NCBI GenBank assembly: GCA_963699255.1
Contig: OY969425.1
Span: 990,001 to 1,022,000 of the forward strand
Length of the DNA stretch: 32,000 bases
From: an uncultured bacterium
GTDB lineage: Bacteria; Margulisbacteria; WOR-1; CAVSGV01
Direction: 5' to 3'
The stretch's first letter is position 1. Each line of letters begins with the position of its first letter. Positions 3,140 to 24,553 of this stretch are shown one piece after another. The notes under the pieces were generated by a model. It ran no database searches, had not been told where the DNA came from, and was given only the letters and a program-made list of their open reading frames with translations. The position numbers were made by a program, and so were the translations under genes.

Positions 3140-4963
3140 ATGAGATACATTTCGGAAACAATGAACCTGCGACTAAACCCCAACCAGGGTGTTGGGGTAA
3201 ACGTCGCGGTTCCTTTTAGTGAACGTAAATCGCTCAGATTTTGGAACCGAGAAGTTTATTCTCAGGTTCCAAAAATTATTTGTTTATTGATCGTTTTGAC
3301 CGCGGCATCTGCCGCCTTTCCGGCATCATCACACAGCATCCCGAACCAGACCGCGAACATATCCGCAACAAGAGCTGAGGCTTATTTCGCGCAGGGATAT
3401 CTTTACTTCCTGGAGAAAAGTTATAATGAAGCCATACCGGAATTCGTTAAAGCGCTCCAGCTTGTGCCCGATATGGTTAAAGCTCGTTACTGGATGGCAA
3501 AGACTTATTACCAGTTAGGGCGGTACAAGAACGTCGTAAATCAATGCTCCGCGGCTTTATCTGTCGCCCCGAAATATAAGAACGCGAGATCCCTTCTGCT
3601 TCGCGCGCAGACAATGCTTGATACCGAAAAGGCACCACGGACAAAGGCGGTCAGGGCAAGGAAAAGAACAGGGATAAGAAGAACCATAACAAGAAGGACT
3701 GAAACAAGAAGAACTGAAACAAGCACGGCCACGGTAAACAGCAACTCACAACACACGATCTCCCTGGATCTAAGGAACGTGGACATAAGTTCGGTGCTTC
3801 AGATCCTCTCAAGGGAAACAGGTATCAGCATAATTGCCGGCTCCGACGTATACGGAAAAGTAACGGCCATATTGAACAATGTTCCGCCCCAGGAAGCTCT
3901 TGATACCATACTTAAATCCAACGGCTATACATACACGAGGCAGGGCGACATCGTTCAGGTGTTCTCTTCATCCGAGCCCGCAAGAGTGGAAGAGCTTCCC
4001 GGAGGTGTATTTGTAAGGACGTTCATTATCAATTATGTGGGTCCCGACGAGCTTCTCTCGACCCTGACAAAGCTTATGCCCGAGGATACCAGCATATACA
4101 CAACAAAAGGAAGCAAGACCGTGGTCGTAAAAGGATCCGCCAATGATATCAGGAGAGCGGAAGTCCTGATAAGGAACCTGGACATTCCCCCCCGTCAGGT
4201 AATGGTTGAGGCCAAGATAATCGAGGTGGACCTGAACGAAACTCAAACCTTGGGAATGAACAACTCCTGGACCAATCCGGACAACGCCACTCAGAACCTT
4301 CAAACAACTGGACTTGCGAATCCGCCGACCGCCACCGGAGCAACAGGGCTTTATTACTCGATCACGGACCAGAACATCACATCCCTTGTTGAAGCGCTCT
4401 CAACCAGAACAGGCTTCAACATACTTTCCAGCCCGAAGGTCATGGCCCTGAACGAACAGAAAGCAGAAATAATGACCGGCTCGCAGCTTGGTTACTACGT
4501 AAATACCGTCACGACCACCGGACTTGTGCAGAACGTTGAGTTCATGGATGTCGGCACAAAACTGGACATAACGCCATCGGTAAAGAGCGACGGCATGATC
4601 GTAATGGACATTCACCCCGAAATATCTGACGGTTCGATCGTGAACAATCTCCCTCAAAAGAATTCAACGGAAACAACGACCCAGCTTATAGTGAAGGACG
4701 GGCAGACCATAATAATCGGCGGGCTGGTAAGGGACACTCAACAAAAAGAGGTCCACGGAGTCCCTGTTCTTATGGACATACCGGTTCTTGGAGCCTTTCT
4801 TAAAAGGACGGAATATACTTCCGAGAAAAAGGAGATCATAGTGCTGATGACCCCCCACATAGTGAATTCGAAATATATAGAAGAAATGGAAAGTAAAGCC
4901 TCGGACATGGAAAAACAAAGAAGGGATATCACCCCCTCAATGCCTCTCGACCTTGTAAGGTAA
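3140..4963 (+). CDS. pilQ: type IV pilus / T2SS secretin (PilQ family) with N-terminal TPR repeats and an R/T-rich linker
   Basis: Secretin C-terminal signature GVPVLMDIPVLGAFLKRTEYTSEKKEIIVLMTPHIV. N0/N1-like repeats (ISLDLRNVDISSVLQILSRETGISII). A TPR-like segment (AEAYFAQGYLYFLEKSYNEAIPEFVKALQLVPDMVKARYWMAKTYYQLGRY). Signal-like helix KIICLLIVLTAASAAF. ATG 3140 is translationally coupled (TAAATG). Codons 9-24 are a palindromic repeat insertion. Confidence 0.88.
   Translation: MRYISETMNLRLNPNQGVGVNVAVPFSERKSLRFWNREVYSQVPKIICLLIVLTAASAAFPASSHSIPNQTANISATRAEAYFAQGYLYFLEKSYNEAIPEFVKALQLVPDMVKARYWMAKTYYQLGRYKNVVNQCSAALSVAPKYKNARSLLLRAQTMLDTEKAPRTKAVRARKRTGIRRTITRRTETRRTETSTATVNSNSQHTISLDLRNVDISSVLQILSRETGISIIAGSDVYGKVTAILNNVPPQEALDTILKSNGYTYTRQGDIVQVFSSSEPARVEELPGGVFVRTFIINYVGPDELLSTLTKLMPEDTSIYTTKGSKTVVVKGSANDIRRAEVLIRNLDIPPRQVMVEAKIIEVDLNETQTLGMNNSWTNPDNATQNLQTTGLANPPTATGATGLYYSITDQNITSLVEALSTRTGFNILSSPKVMALNEQKAEIMTGSQLGYYVNTVTTTGLVQNVEFMDVGTKLDITPSVKSDGMIVMDIHPEISDGSIVNNLPQKNSTETTTQLIVKDGQTIIIGGLVRDTQQKEVHGVPVLMDIPVLGAFLKRTEYTSEKKEIIVLMTPHIVNSKYIEEMESKASDMEKQRRDITPSMPLDLVR
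3164..3211. repeat. nested palindromes: element A arms (AACCTGCGAC / GTCGCGGTT) enclosing element B (ACCCCAAC-N6-GTTGGGGT)
   Basis: 3164-3173 pairs with 3203-3211, and 3177-3184 pairs with 3191-3198. The whole element is 48 nt and lies inside the 5' end of the pilQ ORF. Confidence 0.75.
3676..3720 (+). repeat. three imperfect tandem 15-bp units inside pilQ encoding (K)RRT(I/E)T repeats
   Basis: The units are aagaagaaccataac, aagaaggactgaaac and aagaagaactgaaac. They translate to RRTITRRTETRRTET. Confidence 0.7.
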
Positions 4964-5656
4964 TCTGGGAACGGATTCAAGAAGCAGCTTCGTATAAGGA
5001 TGCTTCGGATTCGAGTATAGCTCTTCAACCCCGCCAGTCTCTATTATCCGGCCGTTCTTCATGACCGCCAGCACGCCGCACATGAATTTAACGACTGACA
5101 GGTCATGGGCGATAATAAGGAAGGTCAAAGCGAATTGAGCCTTCAGCTTCTTTAAAAGTTTCAATATCTCAAGCTGTACGGTCATATCAAGCGAGGAAAC
5201 CGGCTCATCAAGAACGATGAATTTAGGCCTGATGCTCATGGCGCGCGCGATGCAGAGCCTCTGCCTCTCCCCTCCCGAGAGCTCGTGCGGATATCTATCC
5301 GCGTAGCTTTCATCAAGGTCCACTTCGCGCAGGATCTCACTGATGTCCCTGGTTATCCCGTGAATTTTAAGCGGTTCCGCAAGGGCCTCCCCCACCTTCA
5401 TCCTGGGATCGAGCGACGTATACGGGTTCTGGAATACGATCTGATAGTCCTTCCTTGAGAAGCCCGGAGAATATGTAACTTCTCCCGAAGAAGCGGATAT
5501 CAGCTTCAGTATGATCCTCGCGAGCGTCGTCTTGCCCGATCCCGATTCCCCGACAAGCCCGAAAGATCCGCCCTCGTCGATCGAAAAGCTCACGCTATCG
5601 AGCGCTTTTAATCCGCCAAAAAGTTTTGAAATATTATTTACTTCCACTGATCTCAA
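4937..5656 (-). CDS. oppF: peptide ABC transporter ATP-binding protein (OppF/DppF-like)
   Basis: Walker A GESGSGKTT, ABC signature LSGGERQR, Walker B FIVLDEP. The TTG start overlaps the oppD stop (TTGA). Confidence 0.9.
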   Translation of the reverse strand: MRSVEVNNISKLFGGLKALDSVSFSIDEGGSFGLVGESGSGKTTLARIILKLISASSGEVTYSPGFSRKDYQIVFQNPYTSLDPRMKVGEALAEPLKIHGITRDISEILREVDLDESYADRYPHELSGGERQRLCIARAMSIRPKFIVLDEPVSSLDMTVQLEILKLLKKLKAQFALTFLIIAHDLSVVKFMCGVLAVMKNGRIIETGGVEELYSNPKHPYTKLLLESVPRLPYKVERH

Positions 5657-8145: not shown

Positions 8146-8260
8146 AAATCCAAATGACAAAGCTCAAAGGAATCTATTAAATCCAAATCAAACAAAAACA
8201 TTTCCCTTGATTTGTCATTCTCAGATTCATTTGTCATTTGATATTTGTCATTTGTCATTA
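8146..8260. repeat. cargo-less long inverted repeat built from the CAAATGACAAA / TTTGTCATT motif
   Basis: 8151-8161 caaatgacaaa is a perfect complement of 8230-8240 tttgtcatttg. The inner stem is 8184-8191 caaatcaa with 8207-8214 ttgatttg. TTTGTCAT occurs four times at 8211-8258. It fills the oppA-oppB junction. Confidence 0.7.
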
Positions 8261-9780
8261 CTCTTTATGTAAACTTTCTCGATATCAACGAACAATCCTG
8301 CCGGGCCGGGTTCGGATAATCCTCCTACCCTGTCCCTTACCCCGGTCAGGACGTTCGGATACCACAGGAACACGTAAGGAGCGCTCCCCGTGATCTCCTT
8401 GTACATCCGCGCGTATATCTTCTTCCTGGCGGCTTTTGACTGTTCCCGTCTTCCGGCGTCAAGAAGCCTGTCCACTTTCGGATCGCTGTATCCGATAAAA
8501 TTAAGCCCCGCCGGATACTGGCTTGAATGCCATATCGAATATGAATCGGGATCGATGCCCGTGGACCAGCCGATTATGACCGCGTCAAAATCTTTCGGGT
8601 CCTTTCGCGCGTTGATCACCTTCAGCAGCGCGCTCCATTCAAGCACCCTTATGTTCATCTTTACTCCGACCCGCTTGAATTGCTGTTGAAGTATCGTCGC
8701 GGCCTTTTCCCTCTCTTTGTTCCCGTGGTTCACCAGGACGGTGAATTCAAGGTTCCTCACTTTTGCCTTACGCAGAAGTTCCTTTGCTTTTGCGGGATCG
8801 TATCCATATTTATCCACGTCATCGCTGTAAGCCCAGGAAACAGGCGCGGAAGGAGAGTATGCCGGCGAAGCCAATCCCATGAAGATAAGGCCGATTAGCT
8901 GCTTCCTGTTGACCGCGTAAGACAGGGCTTTTCTAACTCTTACATCCGAGAACTTTGGCGACCTGAGGTTGAATCCGAGATAGGTATACAGAAGCGCGTC
9001 GTACTTATAAAGGTTCACGTGTTTTATCGGATGGAAATCTTTCGGAGGAATGTCCGTTACATCAATGTCCCCCGACCTGAGGGCTACAAGCGCGGTGTTC
9101 TCATCGGGGATAATCTTGAAGAGTATCTGGTCAAGCTTCGGCACCCCGCCGTAATATTTTGGATTTCTCTTTACCAGCACGTGGTCGCCGGCCTTATATT
9201 CAACGAACACGAACGGCCCCGTCCCTACCGGACGCCTGTTGAAGGCGGACATATCAAGTTCTTTTCCTTTAAGGATATGCGCTGGCAGAATCCCCATCGC
9301 CGCGCTTACCAGGAACGGAGAAAAAGGTTTTGGGAGGATCGCTTTCACCGTATATTTGTCAACGACTTTGAATATTATCGGCTTTCCGTCGATCATGTAA
9401 TCGCCGCGCCTCACCGAGTTGATCTTCGGGTTCAGGATCGTGTCAAAGGTGAATTTGACGTCATCTGCTGTAAAAGGCGCCCCGTCGTGCCAGGTCACGT
9501 CTTTCCTCAAATAAAAAGTCCATACAAGGCCGTTCTTTGAGACTTTCCAGGACTTCGCCAGGTCAGGGATAAAGTTAAGGTCCTTGTCCGTCTTCACCAG
9601 ACCGGTAAAAATGACCCCCTCGATCGCAGACGAGGTTGTATCCGTTGAAAGTATAGGATTTATGACCGAGACTTCTCCGCCGAGCGACATTATAAGCCGG
9701 CCGTTGGGATCGTAGTCTACAGCAGAAGTAAAATTCATGAAGACCAGGAATGATAATAAAGTAAGTATAAATCGTCTCAC
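8248..9780 (-). CDS. oppA: ABC transporter substrate-binding protein, family 5 (OppA/DppA-like)
   Basis: 510 aa. Signal peptide MRRFILTLLSFLVFMNFTSA. Family-5 SBP-like sequence throughout (VTWHDGAPFTADDVKFTFD). It heads the BCDF genes on the same strand. GTG start. The last four codons (SNDK) are read from the TTTGTCATT repeat. Confidence 0.88.
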   Translation of the reverse strand: MRRFILTLLSFLVFMNFTSAVDYDPNGRLIMSLGGEVSVINPILSTDTTSSAIEGVIFTGLVKTDKDLNFIPDLAKSWKVSKNGLVWTFYLRKDVTWHDGAPFTADDVKFTFDTILNPKINSVRRGDYMIDGKPIIFKVVDKYTVKAILPKPFSPFLVSAAMGILPAHILKGKELDMSAFNRRPVGTGPFVFVEYKAGDHVLVKRNPKYYGGVPKLDQILFKIIPDENTALVALRSGDIDVTDIPPKDFHPIKHVNLYKYDALLYTYLGFNLRSPKFSDVRVRKALSYAVNRKQLIGLIFMGLASPAYSPSAPVSWAYSDDVDKYGYDPAKAKELLRKAKVRNLEFTVLVNHGNKEREKAATILQQQFKRVGVKMNIRVLEWSALLKVINARKDPKDFDAVIIGWSTGIDPDSYSIWHSSQYPAGLNFIGYSDPKVDRLLDAGRREQSKAARKKIYARMYKEITGSAPYVFLWYPNVLTGVRDRVGGLSEPGPAGLFVDIEKVYIKSNDK

Positions 9781-9804
9781 AGCTTGATTATAACGAAAAT
9801 TCTT

Positions 9805-10306
9805 GAAGTGTGGTAGTTAGAGATTGGAAGTGGGTTATGAATTGTGATGTGGGATGTTTGATTGCATTCCTTGTCGACCAAAAACCATCCAGTTTCGCTT
9901 AAGGTTATAAAGTTGCTTTCCGGCAATTTCATAGGTATCTATAAGATAATTGCATAATTTGTCATCAATCCCATAAACATCCCTGCAAATCACTAAATGC
10001 GGGTTCATTTCATTGCATTCGCCCAGTGCGTCATCCAAATATTTCTTAAAAGCTCTCAATTGATGCTTTTTTGCATAGCCCTCCGCGATGAGTGCAGGTA
10101 TTGCTTTGCAGCATCGTCGCATTTGATCGCCGAGATCGAATTTTTCATAAGTCGGCAACCTTGGGATTAACTTTATTAAGGTTATCTTGGTTGCTTCAAG
10201 AACCCTTTGATAGACATTCAAATCCGTAAAACTTCTTATGCTTTTATTATTCACTTCCAACTTCTCAATTCCAAACTCATTTCCCATTTCCAAATATCCC
10301 ACTTCC
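9805..10306 (-). mobile_element. inverted-repeat-bounded cassette carrying a four-helix-bundle ORF (arms use the GGAAGTG motif)
   Basis: Arms at 9805-9856 and 10252-10306. For example, 9817-9833 ttagagattggaagtgg resembles the reverse complement of 10252-10268 (ttgagaagttggaagtg), and 9805-9813 pairs with 10298-10306. Mobility is inferred, not shown. Confidence 0.5.
9835..10302 (-). CDS. four-helix-bundle protein (23S rRNA intervening-sequence protein / Avd family)
   Basis: FTDLNVYQRVLEATKITLIKLIPRLPTYEKFDLGDQMRRCCKAIPALIAEGYAKKHQLRAFKKYLDDALGECNEMNPHL matches the family pattern as I recall it (L.VWQKA..L...IY..T..FP..E.F.L..Q.RRAA.SI..NIAEG......KE...FL.IA.GS..E). Both ends of the ORF are translated from the flanking repeat arms. 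The real start may be ATG 10287 or later. Confidence 0.8.
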   Translation of the reverse strand: MGYLEMGNEFGIEKLEVNNKSIRSFTDLNVYQRVLEATKITLIKLIPRLPTYEKFDLGDQMRRCCKAIPALIAEGYAKKHQLRAFKKYLDDALGECNEMNPHLVICRDVYGIDDKLCNYLIDTYEIAGKQLYNLKRNWMVFGRQGMQSNIPHHNS

Positions 10307-10311
10307 GCCTT

Positions 10312-10719
10312 TTACATATTGCTCAATTCAAGGAGTTCTGAAGATCCGTTCCTTTTATATCCGATCAGCTTGTACGATCCTGTCGAATCATCATAAACAT
10401 AAATGATCTTCCCGGCCTTATCCGATTCCGTATATGCCCTGCCTGTAAAGGGATTTATGGGCACCGAAGTGGCGTATCCGCCCTGGCTCAAATAATTATC
10501 ATACAGCTCTTTAAGCGATATGTTGCTTCCCATTGGATAGGCTTCATTTTCCATGTTATACGCCTCTACGGCGAGCTGGATCGAGTGCATGACGGCTTTA
10601 ACTCCTGTCTCCTTCGCCCTGTCCTGCACGCCGATGAAGTTCGGCATCATGAAAGCGGCGATGATGCTGATGATAGCTATTACCACCAATAATTCTATCA
10701 AGGTGAATGCTTTGCTCAT
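10312..10719 (-). CDS. type IV pilin / T2SS pseudopilin (GspG/PilA-like)
   Basis: MSKA|FTLIELLVVIAIISIIAAFMMPNF class III signal, plus a small alpha-beta pilin domain. GGAGG lies 7 nt upstream of ATG 10719. The ORF track starts one codon earlier, at TTG 10722. Confidence 0.88.
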   Translation of the reverse strand: MSKAFTLIELLVVIAIISIIAAFMMPNFIGVQDRAKETGVKAVMHSIQLAVEAYNMENEAYPMGSNISLKELYDNYLSQGGYATSVPINPFTGRAYTESDKAGKIIYVYDDSTGSYKLIGYKRNGSSELLELSNM

Positions 10720-10737
10720 CAATTAACCTCCTTCGAT

Positions 10738-11215
10738 AAATTACAAATCACAATTTACAAATTACAAACAAATTACAATTCACAACAAATAAACCATACA
10801 CAAATAACCATCAAGCCTTACTTAATATTGAAGAGAATATATTGCGCAATTCCCGCGATTCTTTATATAACTTATTGACTTCTTCTCCAATGTTCGGATT
10901 AGCTTCTTTTACTAATTCCAGCCAATAACTGCTCTCTTTTGCCTCTTTTCTTGTGATTCTCATCCTATGGACAAAATCTTTTTGACTTAAAGCTTCATTT
11001 GCTTCCCTGTAATTTGCCCCGACAGATCCGGCAGCCCTAACAAGCTGTCCTATTAATGTGAAATTAATTGTGTTTGCCGGCATTTTTTTGCATAATCTAA
11101 TTACGCATTTTGCATATTCCTAGGTTCTTTCCTCCAGATCAAATGGTTTTTTGTCGTTTTGATCATTGTAATTTGTATATTGTTTGTGATTTGTGTATTG
11201 TATATTGTGATTTAT
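10738..11215 (-). mobile_element. inverted-repeat-bounded cassette carrying a truncated four-helix-bundle ORF (arms use the ATTACAA/ACAAAT motif)
   Basis: Arms at 10738-10810 and 11164-11215. There are two perfect 11-bp complements: 10769-10779 caaattacaat with 11165-11175 attgtaatttg, and 10743-10753 acaaatcacaa with 11184-11194 ttgtgatttgt. Mobility is inferred. Confidence 0.5.
10811..11083 (-). CDS. four-helix-bundle protein (23S rRNA IVS protein / Avd family), 5'-truncated and possibly a pseudogene
   Basis: LIGQLVRAAGSVGANYREANEALSQKDFVHRMRITRKEAKESSYWLELV matches the second half of the family. Family-like sequence continues in frame upstream (EYAKCVIRLCKK) to a TAG at 11120-11122, which sits 8 nt after a GGAGG. 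Confidence 0.65.
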   Translation of the reverse strand: MPANTINFTLIGQLVRAAGSVGANYREANEALSQKDFVHRMRITRKEAKESSYWLELVKEANPNIGEEVNKLYKESRELRNIFSSILSKA

Positions 11216-11229
11216 TTGATCCTGCATCT

Positions 11230-12231
11230 TTATCCTCCCAATACACTGATTAACTTAATGATCGGCATGAACATGGCAAATACGATCAAACCGACAACGA
11301 GACCCGTCGCCAGGGTTGAAGCAGGCTCAACAAGACTTGAGAATGTTTTCAGCCCGTTCTCGGTACCTTCTTCGTACAGGACCGCCAGTTGAGCAAATAC
11401 TTTATCAAGGGAAGATGAACGCTCTCCCGCTGAAATAAGTGAAATATCCGTCTCGTCGAACAGCCCGGTATTATTCAACGACTCGCTTAATGCATCCCCT
11501 TCCGAGACCTGCTTGATGGAAGCCTCAAGCTTTTCCTTGTACAACCTGCTGTTCACCAGACCGGCCGATAGTGAAAGGGAAGCCATTATGTTCATCCCCG
11601 AAGCAAGCGATTCAGCCATTGAACCAAAAAAAGAGGCCAAAACAAGCTTTGACCTGAATTTGCCGATGACAGGGAACCAGAAACCTTTATCGCCCATTAA
11701 ATATCTGACGAACAAGTATAATAAACCGATCAAAACAACCGCCACAAATGGGAAGAATTTGCCCGAATCTAAAATAAATCTGCTTAAAGGCGGAAGCGTC
11801 ACTCCGACGGACTGGAAGATCCGCGCGAATGAAGGAAGAAGGACCGATATCAGGATAAAAAGAGATACGCAGCAAAGGAACAAGACGAACGCTGGATAAA
11901 GCAGAGCCCCGAAGATCCTTTTCTTAAAGGCTTCTTTTTTCTCCAGATACCGGCAGGCCCTCGCGAGCCCCGCCGGGAGGCTGCCGCTGTTCTCCGCGAC
12001 TGAAATAATGCCTATCACCGCGGCCGGGAAAACGGCCGGGTCAAGAGCGCCGGTGAGCGAGCCGCCAGATTTTACCTTTTCCGCTATTCCCCTAAAATAA
12101 TCCGATCTCGCGGCCAGGTCAAGAGCGCCGGATATTGACATGCCCGCACCCATTAAAAGGGCGAGCTTTTTAAAAAAGTGTATCATTTCGCCGTGCTTTA
12201 CTTTTTTATATATTAAAAAGCTTTTTAGCAT
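11230..12231 (-). CDS. pilC: type II secretion system F family / type IV pilus platform protein (PilC-like, short)
   Basis: Two T2SSF-like repeats (FFKKLALLMGAGMSISGALDLAA and FFGSMAESLASGMNIMASLSLSAG) with TM helices, and a C-terminal PIIKLISVLGG. ATG 12231 overlaps tatD by 26 nt. The alternative ATG 12186 lies 20 nt after the tatD stop. Confidence 0.8.
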   Translation of the reverse strand: MLKSFLIYKKVKHGEMIHFFKKLALLMGAGMSISGALDLAARSDYFRGIAEKVKSGGSLTGALDPAVFPAAVIGIISVAENSGSLPAGLARACRYLEKKEAFKKRIFGALLYPAFVLFLCCVSLFILISVLLPSFARIFQSVGVTLPPLSRFILDSGKFFPFVAVVLIGLLYLFVRYLMGDKGFWFPVIGKFRSKLVLASFFGSMAESLASGMNIMASLSLSAGLVNSRLYKEKLEASIKQVSEGDALSESLNNTGLFDETDISLISAGERSSSLDKVFAQLAVLYEEGTENGLKTFSSLVEPASTLATGLVVGLIVFAMFMPIIKLISVLGG

Positions 12232-23276: not shown

Positions 23277-23392
23277 AATTAACAATTTCTCAATTAACAA
23301 TTAACAACAAGGAAAAATTACAATTAAATTACTAATATAAGTCGCCGAAGGCGACACCCTGTTGTTCATTGTGTCATTGTTAATTGTTAATT
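23277..23392. repeat. cargo-less long inverted repeat (AATTAACAA motif) with a central GC hairpin
   Basis: 23292-23308 aattaacaattaacaac matches the reverse complement of 23376-23392 (aattaacaattaacaat) at 16 of 17 positions. The central hairpin is GTCGCC-GAA-GGCGAC at 23341-23355. It fills the argF-argG junction. Confidence 0.7.
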
Positions 23393-23397
23393 TATTT

Positions 23398-24333
23398 TCA
23401 GTCCTCCATCAATAACGCCAGTATCGCCTTTTGCACATGGAGCCGGTTCTCCGCCTGGTCAAAAACCACGGAATATTTGCTGTCCATCACGTCGCTCGTT
23501 ATCTCCTGTCCGCGGTGGGCAGGCAGGCAGTGCATCACTATAACGTCTTTTTTCGCCTTATTTACCAGGTTAAAATTGACCTGGAATTTCCTGAACGCCT
23601 TGATCCTTTTCGCCGTTTCTTTTTCCTGCCCCATGGATGTCCAGACATCCGTGTAGATGACATCCGCGCCGACGACCGCGTCGCTGGCGCTGTTCACTAT
23701 CTCTACGGCCGCCTTGGACTTCCTGGCATCTTCCCGCGCGACAGCCAGCAGCTTCTTATCCGGCTCATATCCTTTTGGGCACGCCGCTATGAATTCCATC
23801 CCCGTCTTGGCGCAGGCGGACATAAGGGAATGGCACACGTTATTGCCGTCCCCGATATAAGCCACCTTGACACCCCGGAGCTTTCCTTTTTTCTCCCATA
23901 TTGTGAACAGGTCGGATAACGCCTGGCATGGGTGGAGAAGGTCGGTCAGGCCGTTTATCACGGGGATCGACGCGTATCGCGCGAATTCAATGACGCTTTC
24001 ATGCGCAAAGGTGCGTATGACAACGCCGTCCACGTAGCGGGAAAGGGTCCTTGCTATGTCCGGCACGGATTCGCCCTTTCCGAAACGGAGTCCCGCGGCA
24101 TCCAGGTCGACGGCAAGCCCTCCGAGCTGCCACATCCCCACCACAAAAGAGACGCGGGTACGGTTCGACGGCTTGTCGAATATCATCGCGAGCGTTTTGC
24201 CTTTCAGAAGTTTGGGGGTTAAGCGTTTTTTTGCCCGATTTTTCATGAATTTCGCAAGGTTGAGGATCATCTGGACCTCTTCCTTTGAAAGGTCATGGAT
24301 GGCTATCAGGTCTTTATTTCGCAGTTTTGCCAT
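23398..24333 (-). CDS. argF: ornithine carbamoyltransferase
   Basis: SNRTRVSF carbamoyl-phosphate motif, HPCQ, DVWTSMG, and HCLPAHRGQE. Confidence 0.93.
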   Translation of the reverse strand: MAKLRNKDLIAIHDLSKEEVQMILNLAKFMKNRAKKRLTPKLLKGKTLAMIFDKPSNRTRVSFVVGMWQLGGLAVDLDAAGLRFGKGESVPDIARTLSRYVDGVVIRTFAHESVIEFARYASIPVINGLTDLLHPCQALSDLFTIWEKKGKLRGVKVAYIGDGNNVCHSLMSACAKTGMEFIAACPKGYEPDKKLLAVAREDARKSKAAVEIVNSASDAVVGADVIYTDVWTSMGQEKETAKRIKAFRKFQVNFNLVNKAKKDVIVMHCLPAHRGQEITSDVMDSKYSVVFDQAENRLHVQKAILALLMED

Positions 24334-24388: not shown

Positions 24389-24553
24389 AAGGCAAGGCAC
24401 ATGATGGCAAAGGAAGGCAAAAGAAGATGTTGAAGATTATAAGGCTTAAGGCTTGGGGCAAAACAATAAATTCAAAAGCCTTACGCCTTAAGCCTTGTAC
24501 CTTAAGCCCTTATACTGCCATCAATCGCCATCCTTTGCCATTTTTTGCCTTTT
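24389..24553. repeat. cargo-less doubly nested inverted repeat (outer GGCAAAGG motif, inner AAGGCTTAAGG motif)
   Basis: The outer pair 24404-24414 atggcaaagga and 24531-24541 tcctttgccat is perfect over 11 bp. The inner pair 24441-24451 aaggcttaagg and 24486-24496 ccttaagcctt is also perfect over 11 bp. Confidence 0.7.

Follow-up and report, generated by a model that had tools for sequence, protein, structure and literature searches.

What is a gene of the family carried by the intervening sequences (IVSs) of 23S rRNA doing between ordinary protein-coding genes, and why do long inverted repeats enclose it there? The question is raised by a 32,000-nt stretch of contig OY969425.1 from an uncultured margulisbacterium (hereafter the window; coordinates count from its first nucleotide). 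Around positions 9781-11229 of the window, a minus-strand gene string runs from MetRS (methionyl-tRNA synthetase) through TatD, a T2SSF/PilC-like gene (pilC), a pilin-like gene and oppA to oppBCDF. Each of two gaps in this string, the one between pilC and pilin (cassette 2) and the one between pilin and oppA (cassette 1), holds a single open reading frame (ORF) of the PF05635 family on the strand shared with its neighbours. We interpret both elements, with a probability of about 0.6, as IVS-type hairpin cassettes that reside in mRNA spacers and are probably processed by RNase III. The finding thus concerns IVS/S23p elements in a new setting, linked to heptamer hairpins of the short tandemly repeated repetitive (STRR) type, and not a categorically new system.

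Anatomy of the two cassettes

Each cassette consists of a PF05635 gene in the loop of an imperfect 50-70-nt stem, which is made of complementary arrays of degenerate heptamers. In sense orientation, it fills the gap from the upstream stop codon to the next gene's promoter or ribosome-binding signals. The parts are as follows (labels such as L101 denote loci compared with the window):

9835-10287, minus strand: cassette 1 ORF, PF05635/TIGR02436, 150 aa, intact (profile hidden Markov model matches; dN/dS 0.09 against L101)
10252-10306, minus strand: cassette 1 5' arm, purine-rich heptamers (GGAAGTG/GGAAATG), containing the ORF's ATG at 10285-10287; conserved in L101 and L103
9804-9858, minus strand: cassette 1 3' arm, C/A/T-rich, overlapping the last seven ORF codons and the stop
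10811-11227, minus strand: cassette 2 ORF, PF05635/TIGR02436, 138 codons, interrupted in frame by a TAG (11120-11122) and hence a pseudogene
11150-11216, minus strand: cassette 2 5' arm, A/C-rich heptamers (xACAAAT), translated as a low-complexity N-terminus; recognised by inverted repeat, duplex and Tandem Repeats Finder (TRF)
10735-10805, minus strand: cassette 2 3' arm, G/T-rich heptamers, non-coding, with its end close before the Shine-Dalgarno sequence of the pilin gene (AAGGAGG, ~10727-10733)

Both proteins score above the cut-offs of PF05635 (33.8 bits) and TIGR02436 (24 bits), cassette 1 with 67.5 and 64.1 bits and cassette 2 with 66.5 and 86.6 bits, which bears out the assignment to a four-helix-bundle family made in a first-pass annotation of this DNA. 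At the level of sequence matching only, cassette 1 corresponds to the solved structure PDB 2GSC (XCC0516; E = 3.7e-4) and a profile of the cassette 2 family to PDB 2RLD (E = 5.5e-24). The exact 150-aa product of cassette 1 is already present in public gene calls (P0200).

The inverted repeat of cassette 1 (9807-9841/10243-10277) spans 35 nt at 71% complementarity, accompanied by shorter matches, and that of cassette 2 (10736-10785/11166-11215) spans 50 nt at 78%. RNAduplex predicts 41 pairs at -37.4 kcal/mol between 10306-10252 and 9858-9804 in cassette 1, and 54 pairs at -38.1 kcal/mol between 11216-11150 and 10805-10735 in cassette 2. Folds of the whole cassettes pair their ends in both the minimum free energy and the centroid structures (z = -1.46 for cassette 1 and -3.65 for cassette 2). 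Thus, the same-strand combination of a stem and an ORF that the annotation had proposed is present in both junctions. The two perfect 11-bp complements reported for cassette 2 are likewise real: the pair 10743-10753/11184-11194 was detected computationally, and the pair 10769-10779/11165-11175, which lies inside a longer inverted repeat, is exact as read from the printed sequence. TRF places period-7 arrays at 10738-10785 and 11165-11208 in the arms of this cassette. The description of the arms as bracketing the ORFs needs amendment: they lie where they had been placed, but the ORFs take in part or all of the 5' arms, and the 3' arm of cassette 1 reaches into the coding sequence. The arms had also been expected to fold better than dinucleotide shuffles. 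The duplexes reach z = -1.74 in cassette 1 (28/500 shuffles equally good) and z = -2.04 in cassette 2 (9/500), but the window stems are modest when taken alone because the shuffles retain the complementary base composition.

The family match of cassette 2 stands, but its frame, which opens at ATG 11227, 2 nt past the pilC stop, and reads the whole 5' arm as a low-complexity peptide, meets a TAG as early as codon 36, a position at which orthologues encode Ser (TCG). TAG terminates 5 of the 25 window genes and is an ordinary stop here; given this and the TCG of the orthologues, the window copy is a pseudogene. Read-through or recoding of the TAG was considered and rejected on the same two grounds. 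An independent Logan assembly (L001) breaks the gene identically, into products of 35 and 90 aa. The arms are intact despite the broken gene.

Flanking stems across the family

Could such arms be neutral simple-sequence repeats of heptamers that arose in AT-rich spacers when the polymerase slipped, and be complementary only through their low complexity? Heptamer repeats are unusually frequent in the intergenic regions of many bacteria, with slippage as a proposed cause (PMC4692102). A neutral origin would also suit the slender advantage of the window arms over shuffles and the random spectrum of mismatches in the stems. The rest of the family, however, speaks against it. A scan of one genome per species yielded 80 loci encoding close relatives of the cassette 2 protein, in CPR/Patescibacteria (CPR, candidate phyla radiation), Omnitrophota, Gamma- and Deltaproteobacteria, Planctomycetota, Chloroflexi, Nitrospirota, Bacteroidota and others. 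In the 76 copies with enough flanking sequence, the 120 nt before the conserved core were folded against the 120 nt after the stop and compared with 129 geometry-matched controls by a shuffle-normalised z. Raw duplex energies were rejected as the statistic: by this measure the cassettes were indistinguishable from the geometry-matched controls, and the energies are uninformative because the coding controls are GC-richer.

The median z of the flank duplexes is -3.55 in the 76 cassettes versus 0.02 in the 129 controls (Mann-Whitney p = 5e-21), with 72% of cassettes versus 4% of controls below -2, and 58% versus 0% below -3. The arms differ between copies, and cognate arms pair at -46.4 kcal/mol versus -35.7 kcal/mol for non-cognate arms of the same style (p = 1.5e-8). 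The two arrays are always of opposite polarity around the ORF, and they hug the gene, with a median gap of 8 nt to the core and 2 nt past the stop. The same flanking-stem pattern is seen at 20 further loci of the cassette 1 subfamily from metagenomes. Other copies therefore do carry flanking arms, a point that the first-pass annotation had proposed to check. We regard the window arms as non-chance mainly because of this survey and of the conservation among orthologues discussed below, and a neutral origin as so improbable that it is essentially excluded.

The first in-frame ATG lies within the 5' arm in 40 of 55 loci. Many annotated PF05635 members have odd low-complexity N-termini, such as QITNHK..., KSQI... 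and NYNKQITNN.... These are translated 5' arms of A/C-rich heptamers, and start-codon calls for PF05635 are accordingly inconsistent.

None of the surveyed loci is situated in rRNA: a motif scan of 101 sequences returned one motif resembling that of the peptidyl transferase centre (L037), with no Rfam rRNA at that place. The window likewise has no rRNA motif or Rfam match, which confirms the location outside rRNA claimed for the cassettes. An rRNA IVS in the strict sense is an insertion in a 23S or 16S helix, whereas the flanks of both cassettes are protein genes. Across the survey, the upstream neighbour is co-oriented with the cassette gene in 69/75 loci, versus 76% for other adjacent pairs (p = 6e-4), and both neighbours are co-oriented in 57/72 loci versus 58% expected (p = 3e-4). 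The genes on either side lie at median distances of 94 and 85 nt, so that the arms fill the spacers. These neighbours are diverse housekeeping genes, among them MreB, ClpP, RuvB, aminoacyl-tRNA synthetases, GARS and ABC permeases.

The neighbourhoods also bear on another origin for the ORFs, namely as Avd accessory genes left behind by diversity-generating retroelements (DGRs). Avd-like proteins are assigned to PF05635 (PMC10053308). They belong to one family with the cassette proteins and probably share a homologous four-helix-bundle fold with them, and a pentamer is suggested by the five chains present in each of 2GSC and 2RLD. The cassette genes, however, are enclosed by hairpins in housekeeping operons. 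Neither has a reverse transcriptase or a template/variable repeat pair (TR/VR) adjoining it, the neighbours being pilC, pilin and oppA, and no reverse transcriptase, transposase or integrase occurs among the 25 Pfam families that recur in the largest numbers of neighbours of the 76 loci. PADLOC and PHROGs gave no matches for the cassettes, and a defence-system or phage assignment was dropped; a viral contig collection held only five distant relatives of the cassette proteins. A DGR remnant has next to no probability and is, like neutral repeats, essentially excluded.

Selection on the protein and the arms

Purifying selection acts on the arms as well as on the protein. The dN/dS ratio is 0.05-0.09 for cassette 2 proteins of the window type, 0.21 for the type found in L002 and 0.09 for cassette 1, with 0.03-0.09 for the pilin. 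When the window is compared with L009, L013 and L010, fourfold degenerate sites are only 32-59% identical in pilC, pilin and the cassette core (32-45% in pilC and pilin), whereas identity is 77-82% in the non-coding 3' arm and 69-86% in the 5' arm. Identity of this order where fourfold sites are saturated marks the arms as functional sequence and not as the products of neutral slippage. The cassettes had been proposed to be selfish or domesticated; a purely selfish nature is too simple a description, given how strongly the protein (dN/dS 0.05-0.21) and the arms are conserved.

Several observations weigh against the interpretation as RNA-level cassettes. The window arms beat composition-matched shuffles only marginally, and 28% of the surveyed copies are without a significant stem. 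The excess of co-orientation is modest and, for the downstream side alone, not significant. The antisense strand of either window cassette folds slightly better than the sense strand. Moreover, the stem mismatches show no excess of G.U over A.C (115 versus 103, p = 0.46), and their classes match random expectation. Because G.U pairs are not in excess and the antisense strand folds as well, selection on the sense RNA is not demonstrated, and we make no such claim.

Heptamer units and hairpins without genes

In both subfamilies, both arms are degenerate tandem heptamers, with autocorrelation peaks at lags of 7, 14 and 21. At lag 7, the autocorrelation is 0.43-0.49 versus a baseline of ~0.30, whereas coding controls show a 3-nt period only. 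The 5' units are A/C-rich xxCAAAT in the cassette 2 subfamily and purine-rich xGGAAAT in the cassette 1 subfamily, and the 3' arms are their complements. A third cassette type, at the pilC-pilin junction of L101, has arms of the GGNGATC type. Hairpins of similar make-up that contain no ORF are found elsewhere in the window:

8151-8254, minus strand: ORF-less heptamer hairpin of GACAAAT units in the oppA-oppB spacer (fold z = -4.05; 0/200 shuffles as good)
23277-23392, minus strand: ORF-less heptamer hairpin of AATTAAC/GTTAATT units between two co-oriented genes (fold z = -6.49)
~24410-24552, minus strand: nested hairpin of low complexity without an ORF, upstream of the gene at 23398-24333 (fold z = -2.31; weak centroid)

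The hairpin in the oppA-oppB spacer is absent in L002, L004, L006 and L010, and L013 has another hairpin at this junction (L013:8285-8425, z = -5.63). The stem of each cassette, and of the two ORF-less hairpins with the strongest folds, has its base 5-13 nt past the upstream stop codon or overlapping it; on the other side, 14-23 nt separate the base from the next start, and the downstream Shine-Dalgarno sequence is left free. From the ORF-less heptamer hairpins at other junctions, we infer that the element is primarily a hairpin, which may or may not carry a gene, comparable to the short and long versions of rRNA IVSs.

Presence, absence and exchange at the junctions

Relatives of the locus were found via PilC and the cassette proteins. 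Their states at the two junctions are given below, with PilC identity to the window PilC:

L006-L008 (PilC 66%): pilC-pilin junction empty, 18-nt spacer; empty after pilin, 48-nt spacer
L002 (PilC 84%): cassette at pilC-pilin; none after pilin
L004 (PilC 75%): cassette at pilC-pilin; none after pilin, where an unrelated 201-aa ORF is found
L009 (PilC 74%): cassette at pilC-pilin; none seen after pilin, the contig ending ~500 nt past pilin
L010 (PilC 57%): cassette at pilC-pilin; none after pilin
L013-L020 (PilC 66%): cassette at pilC-pilin; none after pilin
L101 (PilC 57%): cassette at pilC-pilin; cassette after pilin
L103 (PilC 32%): cassette at pilC-pilin; cassette after pilin

Variation in presence among relatives, which the first-pass annotation had set as a check, is thus found at both sites: both are empty in L006-L008, and cassette 1 is present in L101 and L103 and absent in L002, L004, L010, L013 and probably L009. 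The type of cassette at the pilC-pilin junction, moreover, disagrees with the relationships of PilC and the pilin. The window and L002 have pilins that are 94% identical (dS 0.54), yet their cassette 2 proteins are 54% identical and their arms differ. The window instead shares its cassette type with L009, with 83% identity between the proteins although PilC reaches only 74%. By PilC (86%) and pilin (96%), L004 and L009 group as sisters but have different cassette types, and the cassettes of L002 and L004 (dS 0.54) are closer than their pilins (dS 1.22). L101 and L103 carry further types. In all, at least four PF05635 types occur at this one junction (window, L002, L004, L009, L010, L013, L101 and L103), with 33-56% protein identity between types and arm styles of their own, and all the cassettes at the junction fold end to end. 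A cassette resembling cassette 1 (69% identical) is also found in an unrelated context in L104. The cassettes are mostly vertically inherited, and occasionally lost, gained or swapped for another type at the same junction. The exchange probably occurs via recombination in the conserved flanking genes.

[quoted passage not shown] Its arms would be terminal inverted repeats for a transposase acting in trans, the RNA stem would be incidental, and the ORF-less forms would be non-autonomous copies. ORF-less hairpins do occur in the same window, the mismatches are not biased towards G.U, and the two strands fold equally well. Further, the cassette 1-type element of L101 lies between the two copies of a perfect 61-bp direct repeat, which corresponds to the 3' end of the pilin gene (L101:3922-3982 and 4491-4551). 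This repeat, however, suggests acquisition by recombination more than by transposition; it could stem from Campbell-type or homology-facilitated recombination, or be a very long target duplication. Filled and empty junctions, when compared, show no short target-site duplications. Within one genome, the arms of cassette 1 (GGAAGTG) and cassette 2 (ACAAAT) are unrelated and hence offer no common transposase site, and neither transposases nor integrases are among the commonest neighbour families of the 76 loci. The cassettes are biased towards the sense orientation. Finally, orthologous cassettes have remained fixed at one site while synonymous sites became saturated, and their arms are conserved far above the neutral level. 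A DNA-level element is therefore possible but quite improbable.

Comparison with known mobile elements gives a similar picture. MITEs and REPINs (paired repetitive extragenic palindromes) are also small elements of intergenic DNA that have inverted repeats, vary in presence and encode no transposase themselves. In contrast to these, the arms of the cassettes are not shared within the genome, no target-site duplications were seen, and the cassettes carry a conserved gene, long fixed at one site under purifying selection. The cassettes differ from integron cassettes in having repeats on either side of the ORF, a loop of ~400 nt and a solitary placement between housekeeping genes; no integrase was found beside them among the commonest neighbour families, attC models not having been run.

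Two peculiarities of the relatives may be recorded here. One is a GC-rich insertion, CCCGC...GCGGGATCCCGCAAAGCGGGAT, nested in the 3' arm of the cassette 2 orthologue of L013 (~5460-5515) and seen in L018 as well; it comprises two small hairpins and leaves the outer stem of that cassette intact. L013 also has an extra PF05635 gene (L013:1202-1573, minus strand), on the opposite strand and just upstream of MetRS, which is absent from that place in the window; tblastn found no third PF05635 copy in the 32 kb.

A proposed course of events on the transcript

How might such a cassette behave once transcribed? We propose that it would be co-transcribed with the host genes, and that the arms would pair in the transcript, so that the cassette loops out and the upstream stop and downstream start come back to near the spacing of an empty site. 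The same pairing would bury the start region of the cassette's own gene. By analogy with the 23S IVSs, which have the same gene family and heptamers, the stem may be a substrate of RNase III, and its cleavage would free the cassette RNA and separate the flanking messages.

Cleavage is not the only way in which the stem might act. The cassettes could be host-beneficial RNA devices without any part for RNase III, in which the uncleaved stem stabilises, couples or insulates the operon mRNA and the protein is a domesticated RNA-binding factor gated by the stem. Arm conservation and purifying selection on the protein are both consistent with this, and the proteins are mildly basic (pI 8.8-9.0). The placement of signals also fits: the downstream Shine-Dalgarno sequence is always outside the stem and the cassette start codon inside, and cassettes 2 and 1 start 2-24 nt past the upstream stop codon. 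A precedent exists in the cyanobacterial STRR heptamers. These fold into hairpins within the spacers of operons, and a role in transcript stability or translational coupling has been suggested for those between hupS and hupL (PMC2670836). Yet close relatives have empty sites without visible compensation, the cassette 2 gene is broken in the window while its arms persist, and cassette types are interchangeable at one junction. In addition, long double-stranded RNA of this size is a generic substrate of RNase III, and the homologous rRNA element is cleaved. An uncleaved device is thus possible, but we think it unlikely.

Relationship to rRNA IVSs and intergenic heptamer repeats

Our preferred interpretation, that of IVS-type cassettes probably processed by RNase III, takes its model from 23S rRNA, and here the parallel turned out to be closer than the first-pass annotation had claimed. 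The IVS of Coxiella is a 428-nt element with a 28-bp terminal stem, cut mid-stem by RNase III. Its S23p (PF05635) ORF is preceded by three or four tandem GACAGAT heptamers, whose number varies between strains, and the 5' RNase III cut falls at the first heptamer (PMC4990558). The 23S IVSs of Leptospira, Coxiella burnetii, Brucella and Xanthomonas share with the cassettes the PF05635 protein family, a sense ORF in the loop of a stem made by terminal inverted repeats, and heptamers just before the start codon (GACAGAT in Coxiella; ACAAAT-, GGAAAT- and GACAAAT-type here). They also have in common the lack of a promoter of their own, carriage on the host transcript (presumed for the cassettes), a sporadic distribution among relatives and the existence of short ORF-less versions. 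A promoter and terminator scan of both window cassettes found nothing above expectation.

The differences are equally clear. The IVSs are situated in helix 25 or 45 of the rRNA, whereas the cassettes lie in mRNA spacers between protein genes, and the cassette stems are longer (41-54 predicted pairs versus 28 bp), AU/GU-rich and more interrupted. Excision by RNase III is demonstrated for the rRNA elements and proposed by analogy for the cassettes, and the cutting of an mRNA would have other consequences than the fragmentation of rRNA. Lastly, S23p appears to be dispensable in Coxiella, whereas the cassette protein is under strong purifying selection, except for the cassette 2 copy of the window.

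The second link is to intergenic heptamer repeats. Like the cassette arms, STRRs are tandem 7-nt units in operon spacers that form hairpins, and they too occur in a structural RNA gene: a citing paper mentions a report of STRR heptamers inside the RNase P RNA gene (Vioque 1997). In the literature searched, no enclosed gene or PF05635 link is described for them. Their hosts are heterocystous cyanobacteria, whereas no cyanobacterium is among the named records related to the cassettes. The canonical STRR units, said to have been described by Mazel in 1990, are reportedly CCCCAAT, TTGGTCA and CAACAGT, whereas those seen here are xACAAAT, GGAAGTG, GACAAAT and AATTAAC. Xanthomonas, in turn, has ~190 GGGAATC arrays, with 70-75 convergent inverted pairs able to form stem-loops; they lie mostly between co-oriented ORFs and keep their positions from species to species, while their lengths vary (PMC4692102). 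These, too, are intergenic heptamer arrays and inverted pairs, and the third cassette type of L101, with its GGNGATC-type arms, resembles them. They differ in having been studied as G-quadruplex-forming DNA (Rehm et al. 2015), with no enclosed PF05635 gene reported. The arrangement in the window had been thought to be without a known description. Indeed, we found no description of PF05635 hairpin cassettes outside rRNA in the literature searched, in which older subscription papers are thinly covered, and an earlier description is possible.

The surrounding genes

The genes on either side of the cassettes, with the start signal of oppA, are:

11230-12231, minus strand: T2SSF/PilC-like gene, the host gene upstream of cassette 2 (PF00482, E = 3.4e-41; stop TAA at 11230-11232)
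10312-10719, minus strand: pilin/pseudopilin gene between both cassettes (PF07963 N_methyl, 28.2 bits versus a cut-off of 21.2)
8248-9780, minus strand: oppA, family 5 solute-binding protein, downstream of cassette 1 (PF00496 (SBP_bac_5), E = 3.3e-103)
9778-9792, minus strand: promoter-like TATAAT (9787-9792), 6-nt spacer and oppA start GTG (9778-9780), as read from the sequence; conserved in L002, L004 and L006

The last of these bears on a claim about function. The stems had been proposed to uncouple the pilus and opp messages, which now appears doubtful for cassette 1. A TATAAT-N6-GTG signal directly follows its 3' arm, and the -10-like CGTTATAAT is conserved 6-7 nt before the oppA GTG (window 9778-9792, L002:7970-7990, L004:8608-8628, L006:7455-7476), in relatives with and without the cassette. 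A simple promoter scan did not list this signal. On reading these motifs, we consider that oppA probably has a dedicated, possibly leaderless, start and promoter. The retention of the signal in filled and empty relatives alike suggests that cassette 1 probably ends the pilin transcription unit and does not sit inside a pilin-opp operon.

The gene order MetRS-TatD-PilC-pilin is kept across the whole clade. The T2SSF/PilC-like gene is short, at 333 aa versus ~400 for typical PilC/GspF matches. In the segment 11230-12967, it overlaps TatD by 26 nt, and no secretion ATPase is adjacent. ARAGORN found no tRNA in the window.

Implications for the PF05635 family

To our knowledge, neither the function of S23p/PF05635 nor the origin of rRNA IVSs has had a settled explanation since the early 1990s, and we know of no explained function for the heptamer repeats, such as STRRs and GGGAATC arrays, that have been catalogued for decades. 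The cassettes indicate that the IVS architecture is not confined to rRNA, since the same protein family is found in the same kind of hairpin between ordinary genes in many phyla. With this, the question becomes testable outside the ribosome. For annotation, the many small ORFs with low-complexity N-termini ('QITNHK...', 'KSQI...') are explained as translated hairpin arms.

A broader and more tentative view, which we put forward as a speculation less likely to be right than wrong, is that PF05635 genes and heptamer hairpins form one widespread and unrecognised class of RNA-level elements, able to reside in any highly transcribed spacer, be it an rRNA helix, the RNase P RNA or an operon junction. 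The rRNA IVSs, the STRRs and the Xanthomonas GGGAATC pairs would then be members of this class, and the pentameric protein might bind its own heptamer stem to control RNase III processing and thereby the persistence or spread of the cassette. If so, three repeat phenomena that have been described separately would have a common explanation.

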